A program made the translations under genes and the position numbers. Below, piece after piece: positions 3,583 through 54,985 of a stretch of DNA of 64,000 nt. Below the pieces are notes generated by a model, which was not told the DNA's origin, made no database searches, and worked only from the letters and a program-made list of their open reading frames with translations. Each line of letters begins with the position of its first letter. Positions within the stretch are counted from its first letter, which is position 1. Source of the stretch: Candidatus Poribacteria bacterium (lineage in GTDB: Bacteria; Poribacteria; WGA-4E; WGA-3G); assembly GCA_965242965.1 (NCBI GenBank), contig OZ251518.1, positions 576,001-640,000 of the forward strand, read 5' to 3'.

Positions 3583-4476
3583 ATGAAAATCGTTGAATAT
3601 ACCCCTGAATTGCTGAAGCCGATAACTGCCTGCTACAACCGCCTCACCGCGAATGTACCGCACTGCTATCCCGTAACCGAAACGGAATTTGGTGAAGAGT
3701 TGGCGAGCACCCCATCAGAGGAGCACCCTGACATCGTTTTGATTTCGCAGGATACCTTTGTTGCGACATCGGACGACATTGTGCTTGGATTTGTCCAAGC
3801 GCGCGTTGACGAATTGAGGCAACATGCGTGCAACCTCGGCATTATCAGGTTTCTCGGCTACCTCCCCGGCGAACGCCGCGTAGGACAAGCACTGCTTGAA
3901 AAAGCGGAGGCACACTTAAAAACGCAAGATTCAACACGCATCGTCGCCGTTCCGCAAAAATACCGCTACCGCTTCTATCATTTCGGACACGCCTATCTCT
4001 CCAATGGACTCGCACCGGTGCAGGCACTCCTCGCCTTCAACGGCTATGAACGTACCGCTGGCGAGGTGTTTTTGGCGTGGGAGAACTACGATGTCGTGCC
4101 AACGCCGCCCGCGCAACCCGTGGAGATTACTGTCGAATGGACAGAAGGTAGAGGCAAACACCCAAACTGCACCGTGCGCGGTGTCCGCGATGGAGAACAG
4201 GTAGGCGTTTGCGAATCGCTCTGTGGCGGCGAATTCTCCAGCCATCCCGACGCGCAAGACTGGCTGCACACCATGTGGCTCGGTATTGAGGAGGAATTCC
4301 AAGGACAAGGAATCGGCCGCTATCTACTCCAATGCGCGCTCCACGAAATGCGCAAGGTAGGATACCGCCACGCGCTCATTAGCACGGCATGGGATAATCA
4401 CCGCGCCTTCCTCTTTTACAGCAACTTCGGCTACCGCGTCACGGATTGGACGTATGAATTTTCAAAACGTTTGTGA
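3583..4476 (+). CDS. Tandem-domain GNAT N-acetyltransferase
   Basis: RRVGQALL and FQGQGIGRYLL acetyl-CoA motifs; N-x-x-A-x-x-FY-x-x-x-GY. Confidence 0.85.
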   Translation: MKIVEYTPELLKPITACYNRLTANVPHCYPVTETEFGEELASTPSEEHPDIVLISQDTFVATSDDIVLGFVQARVDELRQHACNLGIIRFLGYLPGERRVGQALLEKAEAHLKTQDSTRIVAVPQKYRYRFYHFGHAYLSNGLAPVQALLAFNGYERTAGEVFLAWENYDVVPTPPAQPVEITVEWTEGRGKHPNCTVRGVRDGEQVGVCESLCGGEFSSHPDAQDWLHTMWLGIEEEFQGQGIGRYLLQCALHEMRKVGYRHALISTAWDNHRAFLFYSNFGYRVTDWTYEFSKRL

Positions 4477-7400
4477 TACCTATTTGCGAGACATCCGCCG
4501 CACGCATGAGAACCCGCTCGCAACCGGGGAGCTCTCCCTACATCGGCATTTAACGACGTTCTTGGAGCAAGCCGCTGTCTGCCTCGGCCATAATATCACG
4601 ATAACGCATGAACCGCGGTTGCTTGACATCGGCAGACCGGATTTCATCGCCACGGATACGAGCCAAAACGCAGTGGGCTCCATTGAGGCGGAGACGTTTG
4701 GCACCGATTTAGACGCGCTCACCGGCCATGCGAAAACGCAGAACGCGCGGTTCATTGAAAATGTGGATAATTTTATCCTTACCAATTTCGTTGAATTTCG
4801 TCTGTATAGTGGGGGTGCATTGCGTGCAACGTCACAGGTTATCCCGGGGGCGTTGACGAAAGACGAAACACGAACCCTCTTGTCGCGGTTTTTTGGTGCG
4901 GAGACAGTGCCGCTTGCAACACCGGAGGCACTCGCCAAGCACCTCGCACGGCGCACGCGCGAATTACACACGCAAATCGCAACGACATTAACCAACGAAA
5001 ACAGCAACATATACGGCATGTTCTCGGCGTTCAAAGAGATGCTGCTCGTCACTTTAACACCGACAGATTTCGCCGATATGTATGCACAGACATTGACGTA
5101 TGGCCTCTTCGCGGCGCGTTGCACGCTCCCGCATGCAACGCAGTTTTCGCGGTTGACAGCTGCGGCCGCGGTGCCGCGTTCAAACCCGTTTCTGCGGCAA
5201 CTTTTCCACCACATCGCCTCGCCAAATTTGGAGAGCAACATCACGTGGATTTTAGACGAGATTGTGCAGCTTTTGCGGAACGTCTCTGCCGAGATGCTTA
5301 GCACGGCGTTTGACGCGCGCACGCATGCCGCAGATCCGGTTATTCATTTCTACGAGACGTTCCTCGCTGAGTATGACCCGGGGCGGCGCGTGGAGAGAGG
5401 TGTCTACTACACGCCGCAACCCGTGATTTCTTACATTGTCCGTTCTGTAGACGTGCTGCTCAAAACGAAACTCGGCAAGCCGGATGGGCTCGCTGATAAG
5501 GACGCGCTCATTTTAGACCCGGCTACCGGCACCGGTGGTTTCCTGATGGAAGTGCTGAGTTGCATCCGACGGCACGTCATGACAACCTATGGCAGCGGCA
5601 TTTGGGGGCGTTACGTGAACGAGCACTTAGCGCAGCGGCTCATCGGTTTTGAGGTTCTCGTTGCACCCTATACGATTGCGCACCTGAACCTCTGCATCTT
5701 CCTGCAAGCGCAGGGGTGGAATGAGGATATGAACAACGAGCGTCTTCGCATTTACCTCACGAACACGTTGGAGGCACCGGTGCCGCGTGAGCGATATGCG
5801 TTTGCGCAGTTTATCTCTGATGAGGCGAACGCGGCGGTTTCTGTGAAAAAAGACGCGCCTATCCTCGTCATCGTCGGCAATCCGCCGTATCCAGAAAATT
5901 CGGCGAATCCGAGCCGCGATGGCACTGGTGCACTCACGTTTATCGGGCGGCTTATTGAGGACTATAAGCGTATTGATGGGAAACCACTTGGTGAGAGGGC
6001 TTCAACAGTCCTTCAGGGCGACTATGTCAAGTTTATCCGATGGGCGCAGTGGCGAATTGACAAAACCGGTGAAGGGATTTTCGGTTACATTGTCAACAAC
6101 AGTTTCCTTGACGGCCCGGTTTTTCGTGGCATGCGGCAGAGCTTGATGGACAGTTTCACTGCCATTTACCACCTCAATTTGCATGGAAGTGCCAGAAGAA
6201 CATCTGTTGTTCCAGATGGAGAGCGGGACGAAAACGTGTTTGACATCCAACAAGGCGTATCAATCTTGTTGTGTGTTAAAGCGCGCGATGCTGCTGCGCC
6301 TGCGAGAGTCTATTACGCGGATATGTGGGGTAACCGCGCTGAAAAGTATGGCGCGCTTTTGTCCGCGGATGTTAAAACCACCGAATGGGAGGAGGTGCCG
6401 GCTGTCCCGCCGCTCTACCTCTTCGTGCCACAAAGCACTGAACACAAAGCCGAATATGAGGCCGGATGGAAAGTTTCTGACATTTTTCAGGAACATTCGG
6501 TTGGATTTTTCACGCAACGCGATAAATTGGCTGTCCATCTCTCCGAAGAGGCGGTGCGTCGAACGGTGGCAGATTTTGCTTCACTCTCAGAGGAAGAAGC
6601 GCGGGAAAAATATCAGTTGAAAAAGGATAGCCGCGATTGGCAGGTTCGTCTCGCGCAGGCAGATCTTCGTAAGCATTGTGTCAGGGAAGAAGGACATGGT
6701 GTGGTTCGTTATGCGGCAAAAGACGAATACCTCGCGCAGATGTCCTACCGGCCTTTTGATACCCGTTTCACCTACTACACAGGGCAATCGCGCGGGTTTC
6801 ACAGCACGCCGTGTCGTAAGGTTATGCATCATCTGCGTGCCGGAAAAAACCTAGCACTCTGCACATGTCGTATCGTCACGAACTCGGTTTGGCAACACGC
6901 TTTGGTGACAGACCGGATTACCGAAAAGGGATATATCTCAACGCAAAGAAGTGAGTCTTCTCACGTCTTCCCGCTCTATCTTTATCCGCATACGGAAGAA
7001 CTGGAGTTGTCTACGGAGCGTTCGCTCAATCTATCGCCTGCTTTTCTGAAGGTCCTTTCGGAACAGTTGGACTTGCCGCAAACGGCCGGGTCTGGCCTTC
7101 CCGAGGGCATTTCGCCGGAGGCGATTTTGGGGTATCTCTATGCGATTTTGCATAACCCCACCTATCGCGAACGGTATGCCGAGTTCCTAAAATACGACTT
7201 TCCGCGCATTCCGTTGCCGAGAGATTTGGCGCAGTTCCGCCAATTGTCCGCGTTAGGGGAAGAGTTGATTGACGTGCATCTGTTTCGGAACGTTGCAGTG
7301 CTGCCGCGTCATCGTTTTGAGGGCGAAGGCGATGCCGTTGTCTCGAAGTTGCGTTATGAGGCGGGACATGTCTGGATTAATACGACGCAGCATTTTGCCA

Positions 7401-7582
7401 ATGTGCCGTTGGCAGTGTGGGAGTTTGAGGTAGGTGCATATCCGGTCTGCGAGAAATGGCTGCGTGCGCGGCGGCGACAGCGGTTAACGGCTGTGGAGAT
7501 TGTGCGGTATCAGCAGGTGTTGTCTGCTGTGGGAGAGACGCTTCAGTTGATGGGAGAGATAGCGGCTGTCGGCGGCATTTAG
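4454..7582 (+). CDS. Type IIG/ISP-like N6-adenine methyltransferase with TRD; N-terminal nuclease motif altered
   Basis: GVYYTPQPV, LDPATGTGGF, GNPPY, YRPFD, LKYDFPRIP; N-terminal PD...EAE. Confidence 0.9.
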   Translation: MNFQNVCDTYLRDIRRTHENPLATGELSLHRHLTTFLEQAAVCLGHNITITHEPRLLDIGRPDFIATDTSQNAVGSIEAETFGTDLDALTGHAKTQNARFIENVDNFILTNFVEFRLYSGGALRATSQVIPGALTKDETRTLLSRFFGAETVPLATPEALAKHLARRTRELHTQIATTLTNENSNIYGMFSAFKEMLLVTLTPTDFADMYAQTLTYGLFAARCTLPHATQFSRLTAAAAVPRSNPFLRQLFHHIASPNLESNITWILDEIVQLLRNVSAEMLSTAFDARTHAADPVIHFYETFLAEYDPGRRVERGVYYTPQPVISYIVRSVDVLLKTKLGKPDGLADKDALILDPATGTGGFLMEVLSCIRRHVMTTYGSGIWGRYVNEHLAQRLIGFEVLVAPYTIAHLNLCIFLQAQGWNEDMNNERLRIYLTNTLEAPVPRERYAFAQFISDEANAAVSVKKDAPILVIVGNPPYPENSANPSRDGTGALTFIGRLIEDYKRIDGKPLGERASTVLQGDYVKFIRWAQWRIDKTGEGIFGYIVNNSFLDGPVFRGMRQSLMDSFTAIYHLNLHGSARRTSVVPDGERDENVFDIQQGVSILLCVKARDAAAPARVYYADMWGNRAEKYGALLSADVKTTEWEEVPAVPPLYLFVPQSTEHKAEYEAGWKVSDIFQEHSVGFFTQRDKLAVHLSEEAVRRTVADFASLSEEEAREKYQLKKDSRDWQVRLAQADLRKHCVREEGHGVVRYAAKDEYLAQMSYRPFDTRFTYYTGQSRGFHSTPCRKVMHHLRAGKNLALCTCRIVTNSVWQHALVTDRITEKGYISTQRSESSHVFPLYLYPHTEELELSTERSLNLSPAFLKVLSEQLDLPQTAGSGLPEGISPEAILGYLYAILHNPTYRERYAEFLKYDFPRIPLPRDLAQFRQLSALGEELIDVHLFRNVAVLPRHRFEGEGDAVVSKLRYEAGHVWINTTQHFANVPLAVWEFEVGAYPVCEKWLRARRRQRLTAVEIVRYQQVLSAVGETLQLMGEIAAVGGI

Positions 7583-9944: not shown

Positions 9945-10523
9945 TTATCGTAACGGTTCAATGACTATTGACTTCGGAGACGTAGGACAAACGTGCTGGC
10001 AGACACCGCACCCCGTGCATCCCGGTGTCAGCACCTCAACCATGCCTGTCGGTGAGAAGGCGATGGCATCCACGCCGATAGGACAACTGTCCACGCAGTA
10101 AGTGCAGGTAATCTCTTTGGAACGGAGGCAGGTTTCTGCGGTGAAGACAGCCACCCCCATCGCGATGTCTTCGGCGAAAACACTCTGAAGCGCGCCACTA
10201 GGACAGACATACATGCACGCCAACGAATCGCAGATGACGCACGGCTGCATGTCCGGGTTGATATAGGGTGTCTGCATCAGGCCCGGGTCATCGCTTTCCA
10301 ATGGCCGTATTGCTTCGGCGGGACAATTTTTGACGCAGTTGCCGCAACGGAGACATTTCTCTAAGAACTCTTCCTCCGGTAGCGCGCCGGGCGGCCGTAA
10401 CAACATCGCCGCGGGCGTTTCTACCGTCGCCGGAACCCGTTCGTCTAAAATTTCCGCGACCGGCTGGAGGATTTGGCTGAGTGCCTCCTTAAAAAAGCCG
10501 CGTCTCCCGTGTTTGTCGGACAT
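9945..10523 (-). CDS. 4Fe-4S dicluster ferredoxin-type protein (NapF/NapG/MauM family)
   Basis: RRGFF, LRPPGA..E..F...CLRCGNC...CP and three more Cys clusters. Confidence 0.85.
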   Translation of the reverse strand: MSDKHGRRGFFKEALSQILQPVAEILDERVPATVETPAAMLLRPPGALPEEEFLEKCLRCGNCVKNCPAEAIRPLESDDPGLMQTPYINPDMQPCVICDSLACMYVCPSGALQSVFAEDIAMGVAVFTAETCLRSKEITCTYCVDSCPIGVDAIAFSPTGMVEVLTPGCTGCGVCQHVCPTSPKSIVIEPLR

Positions 10524-10541
10524 GGAGATACCCTTCACATT

Positions 10542-11183
10542 TTAAGCGGTTTCGTCTTGACTGGTTTTCGGAATGCGATAGCAACACCGATGGCTGTCCC
10601 GCAGTAGATGCTCTTCTCGGTAGACTTTAGCACCTAAGGTCTGCCGGAAAAGTGCCAACTCCATTTCGCACACGTGCGGATATTCCTCGGCAATTGCGGC
10701 GATGGGGCAGTTGTGTTCAATGAGGAAATAATCGGTGCCGTTTTCGTCAACGCGCGCCATGTATCCTTCTTCGTCACGGATCAGCGCGAGTTCTTTCACG
10801 CGAATTGGGAGCGTTTTTCCTTGGACGCGCTGTTGGTATGTCACCATTTGCGACTGCATGCGGCTCCGAAACACCTTATTGATAAATCCGGGGCCGTTAA
10901 ATTTCGCGACTTCGTGCATCAACTCCACTGCAAAGTTGGCGTAAGTCGTTGGGAAGAGGCTGTGCGCCTCGTCCGTGAGGCGATAGAGATGATGTGGGCG
11001 GCCGCGTTCCTGTTTTTCGGATCGATATTCCACTAAGCCTTCGGCTTCTAGAATCGCCAGGTGTTGCCGGGTGCCGACAGAACTGATGGGCAGTGCATCT
11101 GTGAGTTCCCCCACGCTCATCTGTGCGCGCATTTTCAGCAGTTGCAAGATGCGCATGCGCGTTTCGCTCATTTCGTAGTTCAT
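10542..11183 (-). CDS. SufR-like HTH transcriptional regulator
   Basis: N-terminal wHTH (RQHL..LE..GLV...GRP...Y.LT); EHNCPI...CEME...CCY Cys motif. Confidence 0.8.
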   Translation of the reverse strand: MNYEMSETRMRILQLLKMRAQMSVGELTDALPISSVGTRQHLAILEAEGLVEYRSEKQERGRPHHLYRLTDEAHSLFPTTYANFAVELMHEVAKFNGPGFINKVFRSRMQSQMVTYQQRVQGKTLPIRVKELALIRDEEGYMARVDENGTDYFLIEHNCPIAAIAEEYPHVCEMELALFRQTLGAKVYREEHLLRDSHRCCYRIPKTSQDETA

Positions 11184-13777: not shown

Positions 13778-14836
13778 ATGAAAATCGTTGTCTTAAGCGA
13801 TGGCAAACCGGGGCACTACAATCAATCCCTCGGCATCGTCCAACGCCTGCCGGCGTGCGAGGCACACTGGATAAACGTGGGTTTCCGCAGCAAATCCCGC
13901 GATAACCTCCTCCGCTGTCTGATGTGCCTCATCGGATGGATGCCGCTCCCGCGTTCATTGAGGCACGCACTCCTCCGCTGGAGCCTCCACCGCGATACTT
14001 ATGTCGCTATTTCAGACATCAAATCCGCCGAGCTCATCCTCTCAACCGGTTCCTCTGTCGCTGCCGTTAACCTCCTTCTCGGCAGAATTTTGCGGGCGAG
14101 AACGGTAACGTGCCGCCGCCCCTCGCCGTTAGGCACTCGCGATTTTGACTTGGCTATTCTTCCGATGCTCTCCTGGCCGCGCAGACATCGCAAAAACGTA
14201 TGCAAAACCGTCGGAGTCCCGAACCAAATCTTGCCAGCCAATTTAGACACGTTGAAAGCTGCTCTGGCGCATCCGGATTGCCCGCGCATCGGTGTCCTCA
14301 TAGGCGGTGCAGATAAACATGAAGACATCACCGAAGAGGACGCGGTGCTGCTGTTTGAACTCTTGTCTGTCGTCGCTGAGAAGATTGGCGCGGAGGTGCT
14401 AGTGACAACCTCTCGCCGAACACCGCCGCCCGTGAGAGACTGTCTCGCGAATATCCTCAAATCCGCGCCGTGGTGTCCTCTATTCGTCGGACCGGAAGAC
14501 TGTGCCTTGTCTGCAACTGGGAACCCCTATCAGGCCATCCTCGCCTTAAGCGAACTGCTCATCGTCACGGCGGATAGTTTCTCGATGGTATGCGAGGCGG
14601 CGAGCAGCGGCAGACCGGTTATCGTGCTAACGCTAAGTCCCGCGCGCACTCGGGAACCCAAGCGATACCAGGTCTACCGTTATCTAGTGGAGCGTTCCAT
14701 CGTGCATCAATGCGGTTTGCACGATTTAGGGGAACGGGTTTTGCAATTGTTGCAGGAAAAGCGGAAGCCTCATCCCCTTGATGATACGGCGACAGCAGTA
14801 GACGCTATCCGTCGCCTTTTTGACAGTGCCATTTAG
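13778..14836 (+). CDS. ELM1/GtrOC1-family putative glycosyltransferase-fold protein
   Basis: LSDGKPGHYNQSLG, VLIGG, TTSRRTP, NPY, TADSFSMVCEA..SG.PV. Confidence 0.85.
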   Translation: MKIVVLSDGKPGHYNQSLGIVQRLPACEAHWINVGFRSKSRDNLLRCLMCLIGWMPLPRSLRHALLRWSLHRDTYVAISDIKSAELILSTGSSVAAVNLLLGRILRARTVTCRRPSPLGTRDFDLAILPMLSWPRRHRKNVCKTVGVPNQILPANLDTLKAALAHPDCPRIGVLIGGADKHEDITEEDAVLLFELLSVVAEKIGAEVLVTTSRRTPPPVRDCLANILKSAPWCPLFVGPEDCALSATGNPYQAILALSELLIVTADSFSMVCEAASSGRPVIVLTLSPARTREPKRYQVYRYLVERSIVHQCGLHDLGERVLQLLQEKRKPHPLDDTATAVDAIRRLFDSAI

Positions 14837-14837
14837 T

Positions 14838-15265
14838 TGAGGGTGTTTTATATTTCAATGCGTTCGGTAGGATAGTCCTCCGGGTCTTGATGTCTTCTCG
14901 GTAGGAGAGACCTCCCGGTCTCGACATCTTCGGGTAGGAGGGACCTCCCGATAAGGCGTGCATTCTCTTAACCCGTTCGGGTGCAGGCGCACCCGAACTA
15001 CAGGGCCAGCGGGCGCACCCCGACTGTAGTTCAGGATCGCCTGATCCTGACCCGTTTGTGATCAGGCGATCACAAACTACAGTTTGATGTTCCCGTAGCG
15101 CGGGAGCCTGTCCCTCGCGAGCGTTGGAGTGCGTGAGCGATGGCGAGGGACAGGCCCTCGCCCTACGATGAAGGGGCTTCCTGCCGCCGCGTCCCCGGTA
15201 GGTGCGCCGCCCTATTGCATCGAGACCGGGAGGTCTCGCCTACGGGGATTTATGAAACACCCTCA
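14838..15265. mobile_element. MITE-like element: 15-bp TIRs enclosing REP mosaic, 6-bp direct repeat TTTAGT
   Basis: TTTAGT|TGAGGGTGTTTTATA ... TATGAAACACCCTCA|TTTAGT; interior made of GTAG palindromes. Confidence 0.75.
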
Positions 15266-15307
15266 TTTAGTTTTCGGTTTTGATCAGGAGAACTGAACAT
15301 CTCTGAC

Positions 15308-20369: not shown

Positions 20370-22481
20370 TTAGAACGTCACCGTAACCCCCAACGTCGGT
20401 AGAATAGGGAGTTGCGGTTCTTCGTCAATTTCACATCCGATGACTGCACCCGTATTTTCATCGCGCGCTACACTGAAAGCGTATTGATCTACGTTCGTGT
20501 GGTTATAGAGGTTTAAGATTTGGAAATACCACGTGAGTTCCCACCGCCGATACGGGCGCCGTTTGGTAATCCGAAAATCGAGGCTATGATACGCAGGCAG
20601 TCTTTCCGAATGCGTTTCGCCGAACTGCCTGTCGCAAGCGAGCGTTCTGTCAGGTAATCGCACCTCTGAGTGAATCAGCGGTGTTCTCGGTTCACCGGTA
20701 TGGAACCGCCAACTGACATAGAGATGCCACGTCTGCGAGAGTTGGTGACTGCTGCTCAGGGACAGTGAATGTCGCCGGTCGCGCTGTCGGAAGATGGTTT
20801 CCCCATCAGTCACCTCTTCTGCTATTCCGTAAGCGTAGCCGAGACTCCATGTCCCCCGTTCAGAAAAGGCGTGCGTTACGAAGAGGTTCATCCCGCGCGC
20901 GTCCCCAGATTCGGGTGGGAAGAAAACTTGATTTTGTCGTCCAAACTCCCGAATCCTACCGGCGAGATTGGCGAAGCGGTTGTAGTATCCTTCCACCTGC
21001 ATCAAGAAATTATCGGCTGGCGAGTATTCACCGCCGAGGATGTAGTGCGTGGCTTGCTCAGCGCGTCCCGCCGTGCGTATGCCATCTTCCACCGGCACCC
21101 CCATCAGGTGAATCGGTTGATGGTAGATTCCCCACGCACCCCGCAAAACTAGGGCATCTGTCGCTTGCAGTGCCAGCGCGACGCGCGGCCCGACTTCATA
21201 ACGCTGAACGCCTGTCTCCCGATAGTCCTGAAACACGTAACGTCCACCGACATTGAGAGCGAGTTTTGGATGCAGTTGCCATTCATCTTGCAGAAACGCC
21301 TTGAATTCGTTGCCGGTATCCTCAAAATCGACTCGGATTGGTTGATAGACATTGACTCCCGCCTGTCGTTCCCGCACGTCATAATCGTATTGCGCCGCTA
21401 GCCATCGCCACGAAATCCCGCTGCGGAAAGTGTGTTGTTCCAGCAGGTTCGCTGTGAGTTCCGCCTTTGTGCCGAGGAAGCGAAAGTCGCGATTGTCAAA
21501 ATCTGCCTTCCCGGTGGTTCTATCCTGTTGCGCAGTGCCGCCGAAAACATACACATCTGTCCAGTGCGTCGCGCCGAGTTTGTGCCGCCACTTCGCCCAC
21601 ACCGTTGCATTATGATAAAGGGAATCCAAGTTGTTATCAGTGTCATCAACGCGGATGCGGTTCTGATCCCAGCCGTATAACCCGTTGAGCGTGAGCGTGT
21701 CTGTATCTGTGAGTTGATACGTCAGTTTTCCGTAGGCATCGGCGTATTGCGGGTTATACATCTCGTCAATATCCATGAGCGCGAGGATGAAATCGACGTA
21801 GCCGCGGCGTGCAGACAAGAGCCAGCCGCCTTTGTCTGTAAGCGGTCCTTCGAGCATCGCGGTTGCATTAATCAGGTCCAACCCGAAATTAGCGGAGATT
21901 TTCTCGGCGTTTATCGCCTTTGTGGTGATGTCAAACACGCCGGACATTTTCTCGCCGTATGCTGCAGGGAAGCCGCCCATGAACATTTCGGCTCGCTGGA
22001 TGAGCCCGAGCCCTATCAGCGATACTGCGCCGCCGAAGTCTTGAAGATGGTAGGGGTTATAGAGTTCCATCCCGTCAAGTCTGACAGAGATGTCCTCTTT
22101 TTCTCCGCCGCGCACGCTGAACCGCGCGCTGTAATCCGCCGCTACCACACCGGGAAAGATGTGCCCGGCACGCATAATATCGTTGTCAACGAGGGGAATG
22201 CGTTCGATCTCCTGTTTTGATAGCGACAGCCGTGCCGCCGTGCCATCGTAAATCGTAAATCGTCCTGGGGTAACGACGATTTTTGGGAGTTGGATGGGTT
22301 CTTCCTCCTCTTGCGCGAAAACTACGCCGCCTACAGTTAGCAAAGTTGTCCATCCCCAAAATAGGATGGGAAGCATTAGATATATTGAGAACCGACATCG
22401 GGATGTGTCCATTCGGTTGCACCTTTCAAAAAGATTGTTTTTAAGACAGACGCAGATGAACTCGGTGGTAGCCTCTGGCAT
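20370..22481 (-). CDS. TonB-dependent receptor
   Basis: Plug FSVRGG...LDG..LYNPYH, GGFPAAYG..MSGV; barrel FLQDEW, RLPAYHSLD, NLYN; terminal Phe; start could be 22412. Confidence 0.9.
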   Translation of the reverse strand: MPEATTEFICVCLKNNLFERCNRMDTSRCRFSIYLMLPILFWGWTTLLTVGGVVFAQEEEEPIQLPKIVVTPGRFTIYDGTAARLSLSKQEIERIPLVDNDIMRAGHIFPGVVAADYSARFSVRGGEKEDISVRLDGMELYNPYHLQDFGGAVSLIGLGLIQRAEMFMGGFPAAYGEKMSGVFDITTKAINAEKISANFGLDLINATAMLEGPLTDKGGWLLSARRGYVDFILALMDIDEMYNPQYADAYGKLTYQLTDTDTLTLNGLYGWDQNRIRVDDTDNNLDSLYHNATVWAKWRHKLGATHWTDVYVFGGTAQQDRTTGKADFDNRDFRFLGTKAELTANLLEQHTFRSGISWRWLAAQYDYDVRERQAGVNVYQPIRVDFEDTGNEFKAFLQDEWQLHPKLALNVGGRYVFQDYRETGVQRYEVGPRVALALQATDALVLRGAWGIYHQPIHLMGVPVEDGIRTAGRAEQATHYILGGEYSPADNFLMQVEGYYNRFANLAGRIREFGRQNQVFFPPESGDARGMNLFVTHAFSERGTWSLGYAYGIAEEVTDGETIFRQRDRRHSLSLSSSHQLSQTWHLYVSWRFHTGEPRTPLIHSEVRLPDRTLACDRQFGETHSERLPAYHSLDFRITKRRPYRRWELTWYFQILNLYNHTNVDQYAFSVARDENTGAVIGCEIDEEPQLPILPTLGVTVTF

Positions 22482-22501
22482 TTGCGTCCGGATTATTTTA
22501 A

Positions 22502-23299
22502 TGCGGGTGTTTCATATTTTGATGTTTTCCCGGTAGGAGAGACCTCCTGGTCTCGATGTAATACCGTAGGGGAAACCGCCTAGTCTTGATATTGTCCGCA
22601 CAATCCATCGATCGCGGGGGACAGGCCCCCGCGCTACGATAAAAAAACGCCACTTCACCGTAGGGCGAGGGCCTGTCCCTCGCCATGCTTTTCGCTGTCA
22701 GACTGCATCACCCCTGTAGGTCAGGATCGCCTGCTCCCGACCCGTTTGTGATCAGGCGATCACAAACTACAGATGGGGAAACACACATCGGGACGATGGA
22801 CAACGCGGGGGCCTGTCCCCCGCGCTACGATGAAAAAACGCCACTTCACCGTAGGGCTTGGGCCCTCGGATGCCACACGCGCATGCGAGCGGGTTTCCCT
22901 CGCCATCGTTCGCGCTCCGGAAAAAACGTCTCTTAGGTCCGTAGGACCTTAATGTCTATAGCGCGCGTGCTAGCGAAGAATCCTAAGGTCCTTTAGGTCC
23001 TTAATAGGTTTTGCCAGGTCTGCTCGTTTTTTATTAAGGACCTAAAGGACCTTGACAACGGCACTGCACGTTTTTCTATAGACATTAAGGACCTAAAGGA
23101 CCTAAAACGCACCTCGTAATGATGGCACTCGCGGGGGACAGGCCCCCGCGCTACGATAAAAAAAACGGTTCTTGAGCCATCGCGGAGGTCTGTCCCCCGC
23201 GCTAGGGGAAAATCGAGACCGGGAGGTCTCTCCTACCGAGGATCCCTCAAGACCAGGAGGTCTTTCCTACCGAACACATCAAGATATGAAACACCCTCA
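22502..23299. mobile_element. MITE-like element (798 bp): TIRs enclosing REP mosaic, 6-bp direct repeat TTTTAA
   Basis: TTTTAA|TGCGGGTGTTTCATA ... TATGAAACACCCTCA|TTTTAA; imperfect inverted symmetry extends about 50 bp. Confidence 0.8.
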
Positions 23300-23310
23300 T
23301 TTTAATGCAC

Positions 23311-32827: not shown

Positions 32828-32829
32828 TC

Positions 32830-34112
32830 CGGTAGGAGACCTCCTGGTCTCAATTCCCCCGCCGTATCGGGACAAGGGCCCACCTCTGTAGTTCGGGAGC
32901 ACCCGCTCCCGAACAGGTCAGGATCTGTTTTTTTTCGTAGCGCGGGGGCCTGTCCCCCGCGATCGTTGCATGGCGAGGGACAGGCCCTCGCCCTACGGTG
33001 AAGGGGCGGCGTTTTTTATCGCAGCGCGGTTGCCTGTTCTCCGCGAGCGGGCGTTTTTTTTCGTAGCGCGGGGGCCTGTCCCCCGCGATCTCCATCGTCA
33101 AGAGGCCATCTTAGGTCCTTTAGGACCTACATGTCTATAGCAGCCCGTGTCGGCCCGTTTTCAAGGTCCTTTAGGACCTTAATAAAAAACACGCCGCATC
33201 TCAAAACCTATTAAGGACCTAAAGGACCTTAAGCTTCTTCGCCAGCGCGCGTGCTATAGACATTAAGGTCTTACAGACCTTTTTGTTCTCCCCTCTCTGT
33301 AGTTTGTGATCGCCTGATCACAAACGGGTGAGGATCGCTTGGTAAATATGCCAGAGCTTCAGGCGATCTTAACCTACAGAGCCTGGCGAGCCAGCGAGCG
33401 ATGGCGAGGGACAGGCCCTCGCCCCTACGTGAAAGGGTGACCTTTTTTACCGTAGCGCGGGGGCCTGTCCCCCGCGATCTCCATCGTCAAGAGTGGCGTT
33501 TTAGGTCCGTTAGGACCTACATGTCTATAGAAAAACATGCCGGCTCACGTCAAGGTCCGTTAGGACCTTAATAAAAAAAACACGCCGCATTTCAAAGCCT
33601 ATTAAGGACCTAAAGGACCTTAGCGTTTTTCACAGCCTCACGTGCTATAGACATTCAGGTCCTACGGACCTGAAGAGAACCAGAGACGTTTTTCCAGAGA
33701 GCGAACGATGGCGAGGGATGGCGTTTTTTTTCGTAGCGCGGGGGCCTGTCCCCCGCGATCTCCATCGTCAAGAGGCCATCTTAGGTCCTTTAGGACCTAC
33801 ATGTCTATAGCAGCCCGTGTCGGCCCGTTTTCAAGGTCCTTTAGGTCCTTAATAAAAAACGCGCGGACCCAGCAAAATCTATTAAGGACCTAAAGGACCT
33901 TAGGCTTCTTCGCCAGCGCGCGTGCTATAGACATTAAGGTCTTACAGACCTAAGAAGCGTTTTTTTTCGTAGCGCGTGGGCCCTCGGATGCGATACGCGC
34001 ATCCGAGCGGGTTTCCCCCGCGATCGTTACATGGCGAGGGACAGGCCCTCGCCCTACGGTGAAGGGGGCTCTCTGCCGCCCTATTGCATCGAGACCAGGA
34101 GGTCTCTCCTAC
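32830..34112. repeat. 1.3-kb intergenic REP mosaic with three ~170-bp long palindromes
   Basis: GTAG-REP families interleaved with TTAGGTCC(T/G)TTAGGACC...CTATAG units at about 33110, 33500 and 33780. Confidence 0.9.
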
Positions 34113-34132
34113 CGGGGAAAACAACATCCCCC

Positions 34133-36025
34133 TCACAATTCAATCAATTCATCAACGCCTTCAACAATTTTCAAAAACCGATTCACTTTGACACCGGAAA
34201 AACGATGCACGGTGCCACTAGGCCACCGAATCTCCAATGCCACGTTATCTCTCATCCCCAAGCCGAAATGCACGCGCAGGTCGTTTTGTGAGAGATAACT
34301 TGAACCACTCCGCACCTCTCTCACTTGACGATGCTCACCAGCCGTGAGGACGACACGCGCACCGATGGATTTGCCGCGCAACGTGAGAATTAACCAATTC
34401 CCCATGCGAGCTCCGCCATCGTTCCGTAAAATATCCACGCTATCGCCGACATTGGAGACGACGATATCCAGATCTCCATCGTTATCCAGGTCCCCCACCG
34501 CGCTGCCGCGACTGGAACGAATTAACGCCAACCCTGAACCGCTCTCCTCGGCGACATCGATGAACGTGCCATCGCCTTTGTTCCAAAAAAGGTGGTTTCG
34601 CTGCGCATACGTCGTTGAACTATCGATGAGCGTGACGTTGTCGTGGATATGTCCATTCGCGACGAAAATGTCCTGAAACCCATCCTGGTCAAAGTCAAAA
34701 AAATTCACACCCCATGCTAAATAGGGGAGGCTGACGGTTGCGGTACGCGAGGCATCTGTCCTGTCCGTGAAAAACCCATCGCCGTCATTGTGATAGAGCG
34801 TGTTGGTTTGGTGCTGGAAGTTGGTAACCCCGAGGTCAAGGCGCGCGTCGTTGTCGTAATCACCGAAGGCGACACCCATGCCGTTTTCAACTAGACCGTG
34901 CTCGCTGAGCGCAACGCCCGCGAGTTGACTCTGCTCCTGAAACTTACCGTTCCCATCGTTGACATAAAGGAAATTGGCATCGGCATCGTTGGCGACGTAA
35001 AGTTCAGCATCACCATCGTTGTCAACATCGCCGAAGGTTACGCCTAAGCCGCGCGCCGCAAAAGTGCCAAACCCAGCCTCGCGCGTCGCTTCGGTAAATG
35101 TGCCATCGCCGTTATTCCGAAAGAAAACGTCTTTCACGCCGTGATATGCACGCGGACTGCAGTAGACCAGGATGCCGTTGACCCGGCACGGCGTATGCGT
35201 TTCCACTGAAAATGTAACGTAGTTCGCGACGTAAAGTTCCAGGTCTCCATCAGCGTCCACATCTGCGAAGGCACAGCCTGCGCTCCACGCCGGCACCTCA
35301 ACGCCTGCCGCCGCCGTTGTATCGGTAAACGTCCCATCACCGTTATTCCGATAAAGCACGTTCGGACCGAAGTTCGTCACGTAAATATCCAGCCAACCGT
35401 CATTATCATAATCGCCGACGCAGACCCCTACCCCGTAACCGCGATGTCCCACGCCGCTCGCTTCAGTAACATCAACGAAATGCCCGTTGCCATCGTTGCG
35501 ATAGAGACGATTCATCGCCGTAGGAGAGACCTCCCGGTCTCGATTCCCCGTAGGAGAGCCCTCCTGGTCTCGACTCCCCCCGTATCGGGACAAGGATGTC
35601 CCTCCTACCCGGACATCAGTAGGAGAGACCTCCCGGTCTCGACTCCTCCCCGTAGGAGAGCCCTCCTGGTCTCGATGTGTTTCGTATCGGGACAAGGATG
35701 TCCCTCCTACCCGGACATCGGTAGGCGCGCCCTCCTGGTCTCGATGCAACCTCCCCGTAGGAGAGACCTCCCGGTCTCGATTCCCCCCTGCATCCAAATT
35801 CGCGCCGTTAACGAGATAGATATCGACATCGTCATCGTTATCGTAATCAAACAACGCAACCCCAGAACCCAGCGTTTCAACGAAATACTTCTTGTAGCTG
35901 CGGCCATCTACGTGCGTGAAACTAACGCCGCTTTGCGCAGTTACGTCTGTGAATGTGACAGCCGGGCGCGCGTTCGCATAAGAAATAATAAGAGAGATGG
36001 AAATGAATAGGTATCCGATTTTCAT
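34133..36025 (-). CDS. CRTAC1-family FG-GAP / ASPIC-UnbV protein with in-frame REP insert
   Basis: Repeated DYDNDGxxD motifs; IGARV...Q.REV..GSSYLSQ...HFGLG...WPSG; insert of RD(R/Q)E(V/G)SPT repeats. Confidence 0.92.
   Translation of the reverse strand: MKIGYLFISISLIISYANARPAVTFTDVTAQSGVSFTHVDGRSYKKYFVETLGSGVALFDYDNDDDVDIYLVNGANLDAGGNRDREVSPTGRLHRDQEGAPTDVRVGGTSLSRYETHRDQEGSPTGRSRDREVSPTDVRVGGTSLSRYGGSRDQEGSPTGNRDREVSPTAMNRLYRNDGNGHFVDVTEASGVGHRGYGVGVCVGDYDNDGWLDIYVTNFGPNVLYRNNGDGTFTDTTAAAGVEVPAWSAGCAFADVDADGDLELYVANYVTFSVETHTPCRVNGILVYCSPRAYHGVKDVFFRNNGDGTFTEATREAGFGTFAARGLGVTFGDVDNDGDAELYVANDADANFLYVNDGNGKFQEQSQLAGVALSEHGLVENGMGVAFGDYDNDARLDLGVTNFQHQTNTLYHNDGDGFFTDRTDASRTATVSLPYLAWGVNFFDFDQDGFQDIFVANGHIHDNVTLIDSSTTYAQRNHLFWNKGDGTFIDVAEESGSGLALIRSSRGSAVGDLDNDGDLDIVVSNVGDSVDILRNDGGARMGNWLILTLRGKSIGARVVLTAGEHRQVREVRSGSSYLSQNDLRVHFGLGMRDNVALEIRWPSGTVHRFSGVKVNRFLKIVEGVDELIEL
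35520..35781. repeat. Eight REP palindromes inside the CRTAC1 CDS
   Basis: Six GTAGGAGAG(A/C)CCTCC(C/T)GGTCTCGA-type copies plus two reverse GTAGGAGGGACATCCTTGTCCCGAT. Confidence 0.92.
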
Positions 36026-39000
36026 AGGCGCAGTTCCGGCAATCCCTCCACAATCCGCAACGTCTCCAAACTCACCGTAATCACCGAACCGATGAGTTCC
36101 ACGAGATACCGCGGGCGCGCCGCATCGTTCGGATCGTTGACAATGCCACTCCGTTTATCTGTCTTCACCTGATACTGATCGATCACCCACTCCAACGCTG
36201 AACGGGTGCCGAGCCGATACGCAAACGCCTCTGCCGGAATATCTGCCAACGTGAGATACTCGTTATATTTCAGTTGCGTTTTGTCCTTGGATAACCGCAT
36301 CCGTTCCACGCGCAAGTCAAGCGGCGCATCAGGTTTGGTGATGAAATTGAGCGGATACTGGGGCGATGTCTCATAATTGAGGTGCAGTTCGGCGAGTTGC
36401 GCACCGGCGTTCGCGAATGCCCAGAAGTCCTCGGCATAGGGGATGTGCGGTAAATCGCGCTTCATGTCGGCGGCGTAACGTTCGCGATATTCGGGATGGT
36501 GCAAGACAGCGTAATTATAGTGGAAAATATCCCACTTTGTGATAGTGGTATCGCCGTAATGTGCGCGGAAGTCTTGCAACGCCCAGTCGGTGATGTTTTC
36601 GCGGCGGTTAGTGCCATCTTCATCGTAAATATAGAAGGGGAAGCATTGTGAACCGCTTTGCGGCATGCTGTCGCAAATTTTGTTCGTCATGAGCGCGAAC
36701 ATGGGCCAGTCTTGCCCCGTTTTGAGCCAGATGACCTGGTTTTCTCTTTCGGTATCAAGAATGGGAAAGATAGAGGGAAATCTCCCAACCCGTTCGTTAA
36801 GCGTTCTGTCAAAATAGAGAGTTGACTTTGTAAACGGACGATAGAGGGTTGTCCGAATGTTCTCGGGCACGAATTCAATGGGCATCCCTTTTTCCAATGC
36901 CGATTTCAGTTTGGTGCTCCACTTGATTTTCGTGCCATCGGTATTCACGAAATTATCGACATCGACATCCTGAACTGTCCGCCGTTTCCATTTGCCCTCT
37001 TCTGCATGGTAGAAGTCGAGCATCTCGGTTAGTTTTTCGGTGAGAGTCTGTCGGTTGAAGTTGTAAACCCATGCATCGCGACTTGTTGTAACACCGAGGC
37101 TAAACGAGTGGAAGATCACTCCCTCTGCTTGTCCCTTCGTGCGTTTGGCTGATTTACTACCTATCGGGATGAAGGTTGTCCATTCGTCGCGGAGTCCTTC
37201 GGTGAGCCACGTGTGCCGTTCGTCAGGCGTGAGTGTTTGCCACGGGATATTCCCGAGGTTTTCGACTTGCGCGAGGAAGTCGAATTTCTGGTTTTTGTTC
37301 CACGCGTCATCGGTGCGGTAGTAGAAAATACGAGCAGAATTGTCCCTGTTACCGTAGGGCGAGGGCCTGTCCCTCGCCATGTCATGATCGCGGGGGACAG
37401 GCCCCCGCGCTACGGTAGAGAGCGGTTCTTCTGCGTCATGATCGCGGGGGACAGGATTGTCCCCGTTACCGTAGGGCGAGGGCCTGTCCCTCGCCATGTC
37501 ATGATCGCGGGGGACAGGCCCCCGCGCTACGGTAGAAAACGGTTCTTCTGCGTCGCGCTCGCGGGGGACAGGATTGTCCCCGTTACCGTAGGGCGAGGGC
37601 CTGTCCCTCGCCATGTCATGATCGCGGGGGACAGGCCCCCGCGCTACGGTAGAAAACGGTTCTTCTGCGTCATGCTCGCGGGGGACAGGCCCCCGCGCTA
37701 CGGTAGAAAACGGCTCCTTCGCCGTGTTCTTGACGAAGATGTTGATGCTTACGCCGACCTGGATGCCGAAGACGCTTGCATCGGAGACGAGTTTACCTCG
37801 CCGCGCATTTCCGCCGAGGTCGAGGATATAGATCTCGTCAAAATCGGTGGCAAGATGCTTTCGCATTCCATCAAACGCCTTTGCGTCAAGAAAACCGTTG
37901 TTCGTCACTAAGGCGACGATACCCGACTTGCCGATTCTGTCCGATGCCCAGCGAATCGATTTGACATACGTATCGTAGAGTGTATTCTTGGCACTGGCTT
38001 TTGAGTCCAAGGCGTAGGTTTCCCGCAGTCGTTTGTCCATCGCGGGATACTTCCGATTTTGGTTGTTATCGTTCGCGTTCTGCTGTCCGACGTTATAAGG
38101 CGGGTTACCGATAATCACGAACATCGGTGCAGTCTTCTGTTTCTCGACGCGCGCCGTGTTTTCGGCGGTTAAGAGGGACAGCTGCCGGTCTTCCGCCAGA
38201 TCGAACGTGTCGACAAGCGAGATGCCTTCAAACGGGAGATAGGTGTTGGTGGCACTGTAAAACTCGCGTTCGATGTTGAGGCTGGCGATGTAATACGGTA
38301 GCAACAGCACTTCGTTGCACCAGAGTTCGGAACGATATTTCGCTTCCAGTTTGAACGTGTCAATTTCGCGCATCAGGCGGACAATGAAATTGCCGGTGCC
38401 GACGAACGGATCGATGATATGAACGCCTTCATCGGAAAGCGAACGTCCGAACTCGGTTTGGAGGAGATGGTTTACGCTCTTCACCATGAAGTCAACGATA
38501 GGTTGCGGCGTATAGACGATGCCGTGCGTATCGGCAACGTCGGCGGATGCGCCTTGGAAAAATTGTTCGTAGACGGTATTGAGGAAGTGCTGCTTCTGCG
38601 AGAAATCGACGAGGGTGGCTGCCTCGCGTTCGATTTCGCGATAGAACCGGTCGAGGCTTTGGAGGAACTCGCCTCGGCTAAACGCCTGCGCTGCAAGGGC
38701 ATCGATGACCTTTTCGATTTCGCGGGCGATGATATTGCGGCGCGTGAAATCAGGATTGTTAAACACCGTGCGGAAGGTGCGTTCTGTCAAGAGATGCTGG
38801 ACGAGCATCTTCTCCACCGCCGCTTCGGAGAGGTTGGGGTTGATGGCGGTTTGGCAGAGTTGATGGAAATCGGCGAATGCGTTACGGAATTGCGGGTTCG
38901 TTTCGTGTTGCGTCCGGATGAGACCCGCGACCTCGCGCTCCAGTTCCGGCACGAGGGTTTTGAATTCGGCGACGGCGGCTTCCCACTTGGCGGCGTTTTC

Positions 39001-39450
39001 GCGTTCATAGCCGAAGAATAGTTGTAAAACATCGACGAGAGTGCCCGGGTCGGTGATGTCCGCGTCCAGCACTTCCTTGCCGTTCTGATAGAGAATGGCG
39101 CGTTCCGGCGTTTGGAAGAGGATGTTGTCCTGTGGGTAATCGGCATCGAACTTGGTTTGGATTTCGGCACGGAGGTTTCCGTGAACGCCTTTCGCCTCCC
39201 AAGTGCCGCGCGGTAACCGGTGCCGGTCGAACAGCATGCCATCTAAACGGATAGGATTTCTGCCGGGGACGCGAAGCGTTTGCTCACAGATGAGCGTCCA
39301 CTTTACCTGTCGTGCACAGGTTTCCAGCAGTGTTTGGAAGGCGGCGCGCACGGCGGTCTCGTGCGTGGCGCGCTGGTGCCGGTATTCGTCCAGCGCGGTG
39401 TAATAGGTAGTCACCACTTTGTGGTGCGGTTTGAGATTCAATGTCGGCAT
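36022..39450 (-). CDS. Type IIG/ISP-like restriction-modification enzyme (N6-adenine MTase + TRD) with in-frame REP insert
   Basis: IRLDG...WEAK nuclease motif; GIVYTPQPIV, IDPFVGTGNF, GNPPY, TSRDAW, YRPF, SALEWVIDQY, SGIVNDPN. Confidence 0.92.
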   Translation of the reverse strand: MPTLNLKPHHKVVTTYYTALDEYRHQRATHETAVRAAFQTLLETCARQVKWTLICEQTLRVPGRNPIRLDGMLFDRHRLPRGTWEAKGVHGNLRAEIQTKFDADYPQDNILFQTPERAILYQNGKEVLDADITDPGTLVDVLQLFFGYERENAAKWEAAVAEFKTLVPELEREVAGLIRTQHETNPQFRNAFADFHQLCQTAINPNLSEAAVEKMLVQHLLTERTFRTVFNNPDFTRRNIIAREIEKVIDALAAQAFSRGEFLQSLDRFYREIEREAATLVDFSQKQHFLNTVYEQFFQGASADVADTHGIVYTPQPIVDFMVKSVNHLLQTEFGRSLSDEGVHIIDPFVGTGNFIVRLMREIDTFKLEAKYRSELWCNEVLLLPYYIASLNIEREFYSATNTYLPFEGISLVDTFDLAEDRQLSLLTAENTARVEKQKTAPMFVIIGNPPYNVGQQNANDNNQNRKYPAMDKRLRETYALDSKASAKNTLYDTYVKSIRWASDRIGKSGIVALVTNNGFLDAKAFDGMRKHLATDFDEIYILDLGGNARRGKLVSDASVFGIQVGVSINIFVKNTAKEPFSTVARGPVPREHDAEEPFSTVARGPVPRDHDMARDRPSPYGNGDNPVPRERDAEEPFSTVARGPVPRDHDMARDRPSPYGNGDNPVPRDHDAEEPLSTVARGPVPRDHDMARDRPSPYGNRDNSARIFYYRTDDAWNKNQKFDFLAQVENLGNIPWQTLTPDERHTWLTEGLRDEWTTFIPIGSKSAKRTKGQAEGVIFHSFSLGVTTSRDAWVYNFNRQTLTEKLTEMLDFYHAEEGKWKRRTVQDVDVDNFVNTDGTKIKWSTKLKSALEKGMPIEFVPENIRTTLYRPFTKSTLYFDRTLNERVGRFPSIFPILDTERENQVIWLKTGQDWPMFALMTNKICDSMPQSGSQCFPFYIYDEDGTNRRENITDWALQDFRAHYGDTTITKWDIFHYNYAVLHHPEYRERYAADMKRDLPHIPYAEDFWAFANAGAQLAELHLNYETSPQYPLNFITKPDAPLDLRVERMRLSKDKTQLKYNEYLTLADIPAEAFAYRLGTRSALEWVIDQYQVKTDKRSGIVNDPNDAARPRYLVELIGSVITVSLETLRIVEGLPELRL
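37345..37715. repeat. Three tandem 117-bp REP-doublet units plus a partial unit inside the R-M CDS
   Basis: ACCGTAGGGCGAGGG at 37351, 37468 and 37585 (period 117 bp = 39 codons). Confidence 0.93.
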
Positions 39451-39458
39451 ATTTTCTC

Positions 39459-40235
39459 CTATGCAGCGTTCGGGAGTTGTAACGTTGTGCGGATAGCGTG
39501 GCGGACTTCAGTGCAGATATACACGGCATGTTCAACCTCCGCTTCTGTTGCATAATAGGTTTCATAGCGGACATCCATGGCGTGTGGTTTGAATCTCTCG
39601 AAGTCAAGCCGCCATGCGCGCCACTCGGGGCGCGTCGGGACGATCAGATTCAACAATTCGTTTAAATCGTGCGTCCGCGGCACCGGCAAGTTTGCCTCTT
39701 GTAGCCACGCCTTGAGGTATTTCTCGATACACATCTGCGCGTGGGACCAGATTAAGTCATAGAGTTTGGATGTCAATGCCTGTTGAAACCGCTCGATTCC
39801 TGCCCAATGTGATTCGGCTGGCCTCACTTTTTCGAGCGTCAAGGGATTGATAACCCCGTTTTCCTCCCAGATGGGCACCAAAGCATCTTCGGCGAGTTCT
39901 ATCGGCGGCAATGCGTTTTCTGTGTCGTAAAGCACGCTGCCTTTTTCGATTACCTCTCGCAGAAACCAGTCGTTGTGTGAGACGCGATACGCAATATCTG
40001 CAGGTGAACGGACGAGTAAGTCCATCGGGAACCGCTGCGGAATACGCCGCTGAATCTCGTTTCTTTTCTCTCGCCGTTCTGTCTCGGTGACATCCATCAC
40101 CACGAACAGGTCGACATCCGATTCTTCTGTCGGCGGGTTGCCATACGCGTAAGAACCGAAGAGGATAACCTGCAGCGGCGCGAATTCGCGGACAATGTCA
40201 TCGCAAGTGGCTTGAATCTGTTTTGCGGAAATCAT
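39459..40235 (-). CDS. Fused nucleotidyltransferase (MNT)-HEPN protein, copy 2
   Basis: ILFGSYAYG...ESDVDL; HAQMCIEKYLKA, PRTHDL, RY. Confidence 0.88.
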   Translation of the reverse strand: MISAKQIQATCDDIVREFAPLQVILFGSYAYGNPPTEESDVDLFVVMDVTETERREKRNEIQRRIPQRFPMDLLVRSPADIAYRVSHNDWFLREVIEKGSVLYDTENALPPIELAEDALVPIWEENGVINPLTLEKVRPAESHWAGIERFQQALTSKLYDLIWSHAQMCIEKYLKAWLQEANLPVPRTHDLNELLNLIVPTRPEWRAWRLDFERFKPHAMDVRYETYYATEAEVEHAVYICTEVRHAIRTTLQLPNAA

Positions 40236-41017: not shown

Positions 41018-41054
41018 GAGGTTGTGTCTCCGTTTTTTTTGGGGTTTTGATTTT

Positions 41055-41084
41055 AGTATAACATGCAAAGGTCGGAAATGTCAA
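41055..41084 (-). promoter_or_regulatory. sigma70 promoter of the MNT-HEPN / R-M / CRTAC1 run
   Basis: TTGACA-N18-TATACT with TG extension. Confidence 0.6.
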
Positions 41085-41118: not shown

Positions 41119-41335
41119 TGAGGGTGTTTCATAACTCCGTTTCAGAATTTATCCCGCCTTGGAGGGCGGGCGAATACCGGCAGGCATTGGGCCCACCTCT
41201 GTAGTTCGGGATCGCCAGATCCCGAACAGGTCAGGATCAGGCGATCCTGACCTACAGAGGAGATGAGGTCTGACACCAAAACGCATGGCGAGGGACAGGC
41301 CCTCGCCCTACGGTACCGGATGCCGTTTTTTTTAC
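41119..41335. mobile_element. One-ended MITE-like element (TIR + ~100-bp subterminal module + REPs)
   Basis: TGAGGGTGTTTCATAACTCCGTTTCAGAATTTATCCCGCC..., near-identical to the reverse complement of the ends at 54985 and 59591. Confidence 0.65.
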
Positions 41336-54717: not shown

Positions 54718-54814
54718 GTCAATCTCCTATAACAGTGGCAATCCTCACGGACTGCTGTTGGACTTTAGACCCGGTTAAGGGTAGAAGGTTCTTTTTTTTT
54801 AGGGCTTGCGATTT

Positions 54815-54985
54815 CCGTGAGCGCGTTTTCAAACCGCGCCTAACCTCTGTAGTTCAGGATCGCCTGATCCTGATCCGTTCGGGAGCGGGCACTCCCGAAC
54901 TACAGAAGTGGGCCCGATGCTTTCCGGTATTCGCCCGCCCTCCACGGCGGGATAAATACCGAAACGGAGTTATGAAACACTCTCA
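54815..54985. mobile_element. One-ended MITE-like element between gspF and gspG
   Basis: Ends GAAACGGAGTTATGAAACACTCTCA; same subterminal module as at 41119 and 59591. Confidence 0.65.

Follow-up and report, generated by a model that had tools for sequence, protein, structure and literature searches.

Do transposon-like ends disperse the REP arrays that lie between them, or have REPs colonised elements that moved by themselves? The question is raised by a window of 64 kb of Candidatus Poribacteria DNA (the whole stretch analysed, ~54% G+C), in which a 15-bp motif brackets mosaics of GTAG-REP sequence. Genes of the window include a type II secretion (T2SS) operon, two Type ISP restriction-modification enzymes, and FGE-sulfatase and FG-GAP/ASPIC proteins. 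With up to two mismatches allowed, the motif TGMGGGTGTTTCATA has eight matches in the window against 0.19 expected (100 shuffles, maximum 1), located at 14838 (+), 15251 (-), 22502 (+), 23285 (-), 41119 (+), 54971 (-), 59209 (+) and 59577 (-). They form three inverted pairs, at 14838-15265 (428 bp), 22502-23299 (798 bp) and 59209-59591 (383 bp), and two single ends, at 41119 (+) and 54985 (-); GTAG-REP sequence adjoins all eight. The 15-bp ends, three pairs and two solo ends described in a first-pass annotation are thus all confirmed. That annotation had also proposed a hybrid, non-autonomous element whose DDE-type ends disperse modular REP arrays. Non-autonomous the window copies are, since ORF survey, tblastn and blastn revealed no transposase in any of them. 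Neither a transposase nor a Y1/HUH (RAYT) protein was found among the 47 non-overlapping window ORFs of at least 90 aa, and Rfam at gathering thresholds gave no match over the whole window.

The flanks of the paired elements define their boundaries. The 6-bp direct repeats reported previously, TTTAGT and TTTTAA, are present, but their true length is 8 bp, a reading that requires the TIR to be the 14-mer G(A/C)GGGTGTTTCATA, the leading T of the 15-bp motif being the last base of the duplicated target. The first element, e1, is accordingly laid out as ATTTAGTT / GAGGGTG...CACCCTC / ATTTAGTT, and the second, e2, as ATTTTAAT / GCGGGTG...CACCCTC / ATTTTAAT. The best reading of the boundaries is a TIR of 14-17 bp with an 8-bp target duplication. 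The three window pairs display 0-1 mismatch to the 14-mer, and two further pairs, L032p1 and L032p2, occur in locus L032 of the MAG AGPOR5.

Element e1 (14839-15264, plus strand) measures 426 bp between the outer bases of its TIRs and carries no transposase. Its TIRs, 14 bp each, extend from 14839 to 14852 (1 mismatch) and from 15251 to 15264, and its left and right target duplications, ATTTAGTT at 14831-14838 and 15265-15272, are identical at 8/8 positions, the left one including the TAG stop codon of an upstream ELM1-like gene (ORF 13778-14836); the gene on the other side of this intergenic region is an FGGY kinase gene. The module order, where capital and lower-case letters denote the two orientations, is T A A b1 B2 b3 P c a t. 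In the predicted fold the two TIRs pair with each other and close a single nested hairpin (-237.3 kcal/mol, z = -11.7). Element e2 (22503-23298, plus strand) is larger, at 796 bp, with TIRs at 22503-22516 and 23285-23298 and the module order T A p C B2 b3 P d [S E e s e] p a a t. Its target duplication, ATTTTAAT, is found at 22495-22502, 13 nt from the start codon of a TonB-receptor ORF (20370-22481, minus strand), and again at 23299-23306, towards a Laminin_G_3 gene. The longest ORF overlapping e2 encodes 83 aa and lies within REP sequence.

The third pair bounds e3, a type B element on the minus strand (59210-59590, 381 bp) with TIRs at 59210-59223 and 59577-59590, one mismatch each. Its modules read T X Y B1 b2 c d c t on the minus strand and T C D C B2 b1 y (x) t on the plus strand. 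The target duplication is absent, the flanks matching at 4/8 positions. Both solo ends are also of type B and start T-X-Y-REPIN B, which they have in common for ~140-210 nt. The first, at 41120-41330 on the plus strand, has its TIR at 41120-41133, followed by X, Y, REPIN B and REP C, and its homology to e3 and L032p2 stops after ~210 nt. The second, at 54810-54984 on the minus strand, has its TIR at 54971-54984 (1 mismatch), followed by X, Y and REPIN B, and is located between gspG and gspF of the T2SS operon, its left boundary being undefined. A search for partner TIRs of the solo ends at up to four edits found none, the 83 loci retrieved window-wide at that threshold representing background. 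One candidate partner of the 54984 end, a TIR-like 16-mer at 54818-54833, sits in the right place and was rejected, as it differs by four edits, which is background level, and lacks a duplication. The solo ends at 41120 (+) and 54984 (-) face each other, with a TPR protein gene and most T2SS genes between them. A 13.9-kb composite transposon formed by both is nevertheless unlikely, because their flanks match at only 3/8 positions (by eye) and one end is inside the gsp operon.

The origin of the ends was sought in GTDB species-representative genomes, using as pattern the TIR with four degenerate inner bases, for which ~100 chance matches are expected by simple arithmetic. The scan returned at least 39 loci. 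Among the matches listed, 20 are from 14 Candidatus Poribacteria MAGs, and the other 19 loci are single matches in unrelated taxa with no transposase nearby. A transposase was detected by tblastn at 11 of the 39 listed loci, every one of them in Poribacteria. In L039, positions 10002-11111 constitute an insertion sequence of 1,110 bp with 17-bp TIRs, an 8-bp duplication (AAATAACT) and a single ORF, in whose product Pfam recognises a DDE_Tnp_1_3 domain (33.5 bits; cut-off 27). The proposal that the ends are of DDE type is therefore upheld, as in other Poribacteria the TIR bounds a 1,110-bp IS with such a transposase and an 8-bp duplication. Four full-length IS copies were identified among the listed loci by blastn with the L039 query, two with an intact ORF (L039 and L038) and two frameshifted (L020 and L035). 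In addition, L006 contains a 683-bp internal-deletion derivative with both TIRs, L001, L007, L013, L019, L030 and L034 contain truncated one-ended fragments, and L015 and L031 match the IS only in the TIR, at contig ends. The protein database holds 1,490 homologues of the transposase; among the 120 listed, most have 332 aa and many are on contigs of ~1.1 kb. The suggested search for a TIR-flanked transposase was thus successful in other Poribacteria species, where it is intact in L039 and L038, but none is present in the window or in L032/L033. The similarity of the window and of L032/L033 to the IS is confined to the TIR, with no other blastn or tblastn match. The MAG contigs L004, L005, L014, L015 and L031 break off in the TIR or only a few bases away from it, as expected for a high-copy repeat; short-read assemblies of Poribacteria MAGs may thus often be broken by the IS.

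The best NCBIfam and plasmid-annotation matches of the IS transposase are to the IS982 family. As outlined in the accessible text of Fayad et al. 2020 (PMC7335449), IS982 members are ~1 kb long and possess a single DDE transposase gene, short IRs, with a conserved 5'-AC in 57/69 members, and direct repeats of variable length. The parent IS is alike in size (1,110 bp), in its one DDE transposase ORF and in its short IRs, its duplication being 8 bp. However, its ORF scores 54.8 bits with the curated NCBIfam model transpos_IS982, far under the cut-off of 130, whereas the broader Pfam model DDE_Tnp_1_3 recognises it, and identity to annotated IS982-family plasmid transposases is only 23-25%. Furthermore, all ends begin GAGGGTG, or GCGGGTG/GGGGGTG, and not with the 5'-AC of IS982; the element is therefore termed unclassified and not an IS982 member. 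As judged from its protein and its ends, the parent IS is an unclassified DDE element, distantly IS982-like and outside the IS982 family.

Target preference was derived from 38 ends with at most two mismatches, from 19 Poribacteria loci and the window; L033 was excluded because it overlaps L032. The eight bases outward of the TIR form a palindromic AT-rich consensus, ANTTAAYT, in which A, T, T, A, A, Y and T are found, in that order, at 30/38, 28/38, 32/38, 31/38, 25/38, 29/38 and 37/38 ends, the scan pattern having forced the last T and four inner bases at one seed end per locus. Secondarily found ends and window ends are free of this bias. Perfect 8/8 duplications flank 4 of 10 TIR pairs (e1, e2, L032p1 and the L039 IS), and 7/8 positions match in L038. 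Both complete type-B elements, e3 (4/8) and L032p2 (0/8), are without a target duplication. When real flanks were paired at random (37 ends, with the doubtful L013:9463 left out; 1,312 pairings), 8/8 identity arose in 0.6% of pairings, which gives a binomial P of ~3e-7 for at least 4/10; for the REP-bearing pairs only, 3/5 have perfect duplications (P ~2e-6). The duplications exceed chance even when the target preference is allowed for, and the concern that AT-rich DNA might by itself yield such repeats as often is therefore removed.

Among the 39 listed loci, the REP modules of the window are found only in L032/L033. These loci include no orthologue of the window sites, the sole match being one 1.2-kb gene (82.7%). 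The interiors of the elements, reported initially as different from one another, are REP mosaics as described, but they represent variations on two recurring architectures and not arbitrary cargo. Type A comprises a TIR, one to three REP A, REP P, a variable interior and the mirror image of this arrangement, while type B comprises TIR, X, Y, REPIN B, REP C, REP D and TIR. L032p1 (T A P P ... C p a t) extends over 863 bp and has a perfect duplication, AGTTAATT. The junction TIR + WWTYRATG + REP A is observed at 5 of the 7 aligned type-A ends, and the right ends of e1 and L032p1 lead from the TIR through AAATCC directly into REP A. REP P comes after REP A at 4/7 type-A ends, with both species represented, and the copy number of REP A varies among ends.

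The alignment of the type-B elements e3 (minus strand) and L032p2 (L032:12798-13060; T X Y c d t) extends over their full length, both TIRs included, and they agree in module order and in their two unlike junctions. Identity is 242/290 aligned positions, with 122 gap columns in three indels; two extra REP units in e3 account for a gap of ~95 alignment columns. The neighbours of e3 encode a HEAT-repeat protein and a type III methylase, while L032p2 (L032 12785-13080) is located between jag and mnmE of an rnpA-yidC-jag-mnmE operon. In place of the 8-bp duplication, L032p2 displays a 10-bp direct repeat, AGGTTCCTCT, which abuts the left TIR, lies 5 nt out of register with the right one and, on the coding strand, resembles the mnmE ribosome-binding region. 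No two copies with near-identical interiors were found among those compared. Since TIR-REP architectures recur at non-orthologous loci of two genomes, at least the subterminal REPs appear to have travelled with the ends.

REPs are, however, far more abundant than the ends. With the module library, 16 REP clusters were delimited in the window, totalling 6,198 bp or 9.7% of its length, of which 5 (1,931 bp) have a TIR and 11 (4,267 bp) are TIR-less, so the DDE ends are not the main disperser of REPs. The hybrid proposed by the first-pass annotation is therefore retained in part: TIR-REP junctions recur at non-orthologous loci, but most clusters lack these ends, and REP dispersal in general is independent of them. 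Module counts in the window are 16 for REP A, 53 for C, 55 for P, 14 for B and 8 for D. The interior units are typical of GTAG-REPs and REPINs, presenting a GTAG tag with a G+C-rich palindrome, high copy number, inverted doublets and arrays. By analogy with the literature (the accessible text of PMC3733652), a RAYT is presumably the REP mobiliser, and Y1_Tnp was found neither in the 47 window ORFs nor in 18 ORFs of L032/L033 (~87 kb from two REP-rich genomes). The other Poribacteria loci contain a different GTAG-REP variant at low density, and there the TIR is followed by IS sequence. Related hairpins of the GAGCGACC...GGTCGC type, which partly form inverted doublets, are located in L007 (160-215), L020 (13330-13395) and L035 (512-535 and 5249-5272). 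As these loci are without the REP families of the window, GTAG REPs may be widespread in the phylum, with lineage-specific families.

Multi-REP blocks in the interior of e2 and e3 have counterparts in TIR-less arrays, with 87-89% identity. Three TIR-less arrays, at 32828-34112, 43216-43982 and 61658-62157, have the same outward-facing REP-A edges; the REP-A shell is therefore independent of the TIR. Inspection by eye of the REP-A edges at 32828, 34112, 43216 and 62157 for TIR remnants gave no significant match, and one candidate, CCCTCA at 34130-34135, was dismissed since it agrees at only 7/14 positions, which is not significant. A palindromic composite of ~200 bp (modules E and S), consisting of AGGTCC-type hairpins and ATGTCTATAGC inverted ends, recurs in REP arrays inside and outside TIR-bounded elements (window 33100-33290, 33500-33680, 33780-33950 and 22930-23110; L032 10160-10330 and 10495-10670).

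Several REP arrays of the window are located in ORFs. Three 117-bp units of a REP C/P array (37311-37716) lie in frame in ORF 36022-39450 (minus strand), which encodes a Type ISP restriction-modification enzyme. They separate its methylase domain from its C-terminal specificity domain (~residues 578-713), and their translation, a repeated ...EEPFSTVARGPVPRDHDMARDRPSPYGNGDNPVPR..., does not align with the paralogue encoded at 4454-7582. Another six units, of REP A with hairpins interspersed (~270 bp, 35520-35790), lie inside the FG-GAP/ASPIC ORF 34133-36025 (minus strand); ordinary coding sequence is found on both sides, including a signal-peptide-like N-terminus, and the array thus seems to be intragenic and in frame. 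A tandem array of four 60-bp units, all with a REP C hairpin, is present at 53965-54203 in ORF 53334-54287 (minus strand), a member of the T2SS operon without Pfam match just downstream of gspG. Two adjacent paralogous genes for nucleotidyltransferase and HEPN domain fusions (39459-41068, minus strand), with 74-86% DNA identity over stretches of 286-300 bp, have as neighbours the solo end at 41120 and the Type ISP gene.

The elements are real and MITE-like. Their history is probably one in which the TIRs come from the unclassified Poribacteria DDE IS, the window elements being non-autonomous MITE-like derivatives with REP bodies that act as an occasional REP vehicle. The parent IS, of 1,110 bp and with one gene for a transposase of ~332 aa, inserts at ANTTAAYT and duplicates 8 bp, and the window elements, which keep only its TIRs, would have to be moved in trans by its transposase. 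Neither an autonomous IS nor any fragment of a transposase gene was detected in the window and 23 kb of AGPOR5, and we therefore infer such mobilisation in these genomes. The bodies are GTAG-REP/REPIN arrays of the same families that fill most intergenic space in the lineage. At least two element families, A and B, seem to have inserted at different loci in two species, so that the subterminal REP modules would be part of the transposed unit, their acquisition presumably preceding transposition. The deeper interior would then have been altered by gain and loss of REPs and by recombination with other arrays. REPs may thus be both passengers and colonists of the MITE, which would be an occasional, and not the main, vehicle of REP arrays.

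A competing and considerably less probable view holds that short REP-free MITEs or full-length ISs inserted first and that REPINs later colonised every copy separately, replacing its interior in place, so that the units would never have moved with REPs in them and the ends would disperse no REPs at all. REPs saturate the intergenic DNA regardless of TIRs, as the 11 TIR-less clusters of 16 illustrate; gain or loss of a REP doublet is seen within one element, in the comparison of e3 and L032p2; and Poribacteria loci without the REP families of the window have the same TIR around REP-free IS sequence. The 87-89% identity of interior blocks to TIR-less arrays suits exchange after insertion, but suits cargo equally. 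Later colonisation would, however, require 4-7 separate origins of the same TIR-REP junctions, of types A and B, at non-orthologous sites of two species, and erasure of all IS-internal sequence up to a TIR of 14-20 bp, while TIRs remain intact, as do 8/8 duplications in 3/5 pairs. We conclude that both processes probably operate, in that a MITE family would have gained REPINs and kept transposing with them, while its interior kept changing.

At the other extreme, two unrelated mobilisation systems could be coupled in this lineage: REPINs, which are HUH/RAYT substrates, could have taken over a DDE-type MITE that carries entire REP arrays to new AT-rich sites and seeds further arrays there, the REP-A-edged TIR-less arrays being its decayed descendants and a substantial share of REPs having been laid by DDE transposition instead of RAYT activity; we regard this as rather improbable, somewhat more so than late colonisation. 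It is very doubtful that the paired ends are two independent solo ends, remnants of ISs, flanking pre-existing REP arrays, or recombination composites. The lack of target duplication in e3 (4/8) and L032p2 (0/8), the solo ends at 41120 and 54984 and the frequency of truncated solo IS ends in other Poribacteria would suit such an origin, but the perfect 8-bp duplications of e1, e2 and L032p1 are not expected from two separate insertions, and e3 and L032p2 have unlike ends and interior order in common, so they represent one element family and not a chance juxtaposition. Finally, it is barely credible that the motif is no transposon end but serves the host as a regulatory or structural site, or is similar by chance: an intergenic position and a sigma-70-like match over the left end of e1, itself a mere consensus match, are all that speak for it, against eight matches where 0.19 were expected, the identical motif bounding a transposase gene with target duplications in other genomes, and the lack of any Rfam match across the window.

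As MITE-like derivatives with REP bodies, the elements may be compared with known systems. They share with MITEs the TIRs, the 8-bp duplication (3/5 REP-bearing pairs) and a small, non-coding body (381-796 bp in the window, with no tblastn transposase match). IS-derived MITEs such as Correia/NEMIS, RUP, Nezha and Chunjie, so far as the accessible text of Delihas 2011 (PMC3184786) and Di Nocera 2013 (PMC3733652) describes them, are alike in TIRs identical to those of an IS (here one of other Poribacteria species), target duplication and absence of coding capacity, as well as in intergenic or intra-operon sites, very stable hairpins and presumed mobilisation in trans. Described MITE families have a family-specific interior and 70-300 bp (PMC3733652, in its accessible text), a usual size exceeded by e2 (796 bp) and L032p1 (863 bp). 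In contrast, only the TIR of 14-20 bp is IS-derived here, and the body of 380-860 bp is a mosaic of other, GTAG REP/REPIN families. The likeness to REP, REPIN and BIME arrays includes the GTAG head, the G+C-rich hairpin, inverted doublets, mosaics, abundance and a mostly extragenic location; the accessible text of Bertels & Rainey 2011 (PMC3116915), Nunvar 2010 (PMC2817692) and PMC3733652 does not describe REPINs or BIMEs with DDE-type TIR bounds or target duplications, both of which are seen here.

Variable interiors within IS-type ends have precedents, going by the accessible text of two reports. The mobile insertion cassette of the Aeromonas plasmid pAC3 (PMC5444012) moves as a unit and carries cargo genes, and a Porphyromonas gingivalis MITE (PMC4596501) contains a simple tandem minisatellite. 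In the present elements the cargo is instead non-coding and made of other, presumed mobile palindromic elements; passenger genes, as in the cassette, are lacking, the interior being non-coding REP DNA. The REP-targeting IS1397, IS621 and ISPpu9/10 likewise tie a transposase-driven element to REPs (accessible text of PMC3184786 and PMC12288879), but with the opposite topology, as there the IS is inside the REP (PMC3184786) and here the REPs are inside the TIRs. Insertion of an IS into REPs was considered for the present elements and rejected, as their outer flanks are AT-rich non-REP DNA. A literature search, with subscription journals and supplements outside its scope, retrieved no REP-filled MITEs, and no REPs, MITEs or this IS in Poribacteria. 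Chen et al. 2008 reportedly discuss REP-like features of Chunjie.

In their behaviour the elements are ordinary MITEs, with no sign of a new enzymatic mechanism. The TIR, the 8-bp duplication and the ANTTAAYT target together define an apparently undescribed IS family of Poribacteria, and the window elements provide an example of cross-mobilisation in which GTAG REPs and REPINs are found inside a DDE-type MITE, in an arrangement kept across two species. If the cargo reading is true, REP arrays would reach new loci without RAYT activity, which would bear on how REPs spread and persist.
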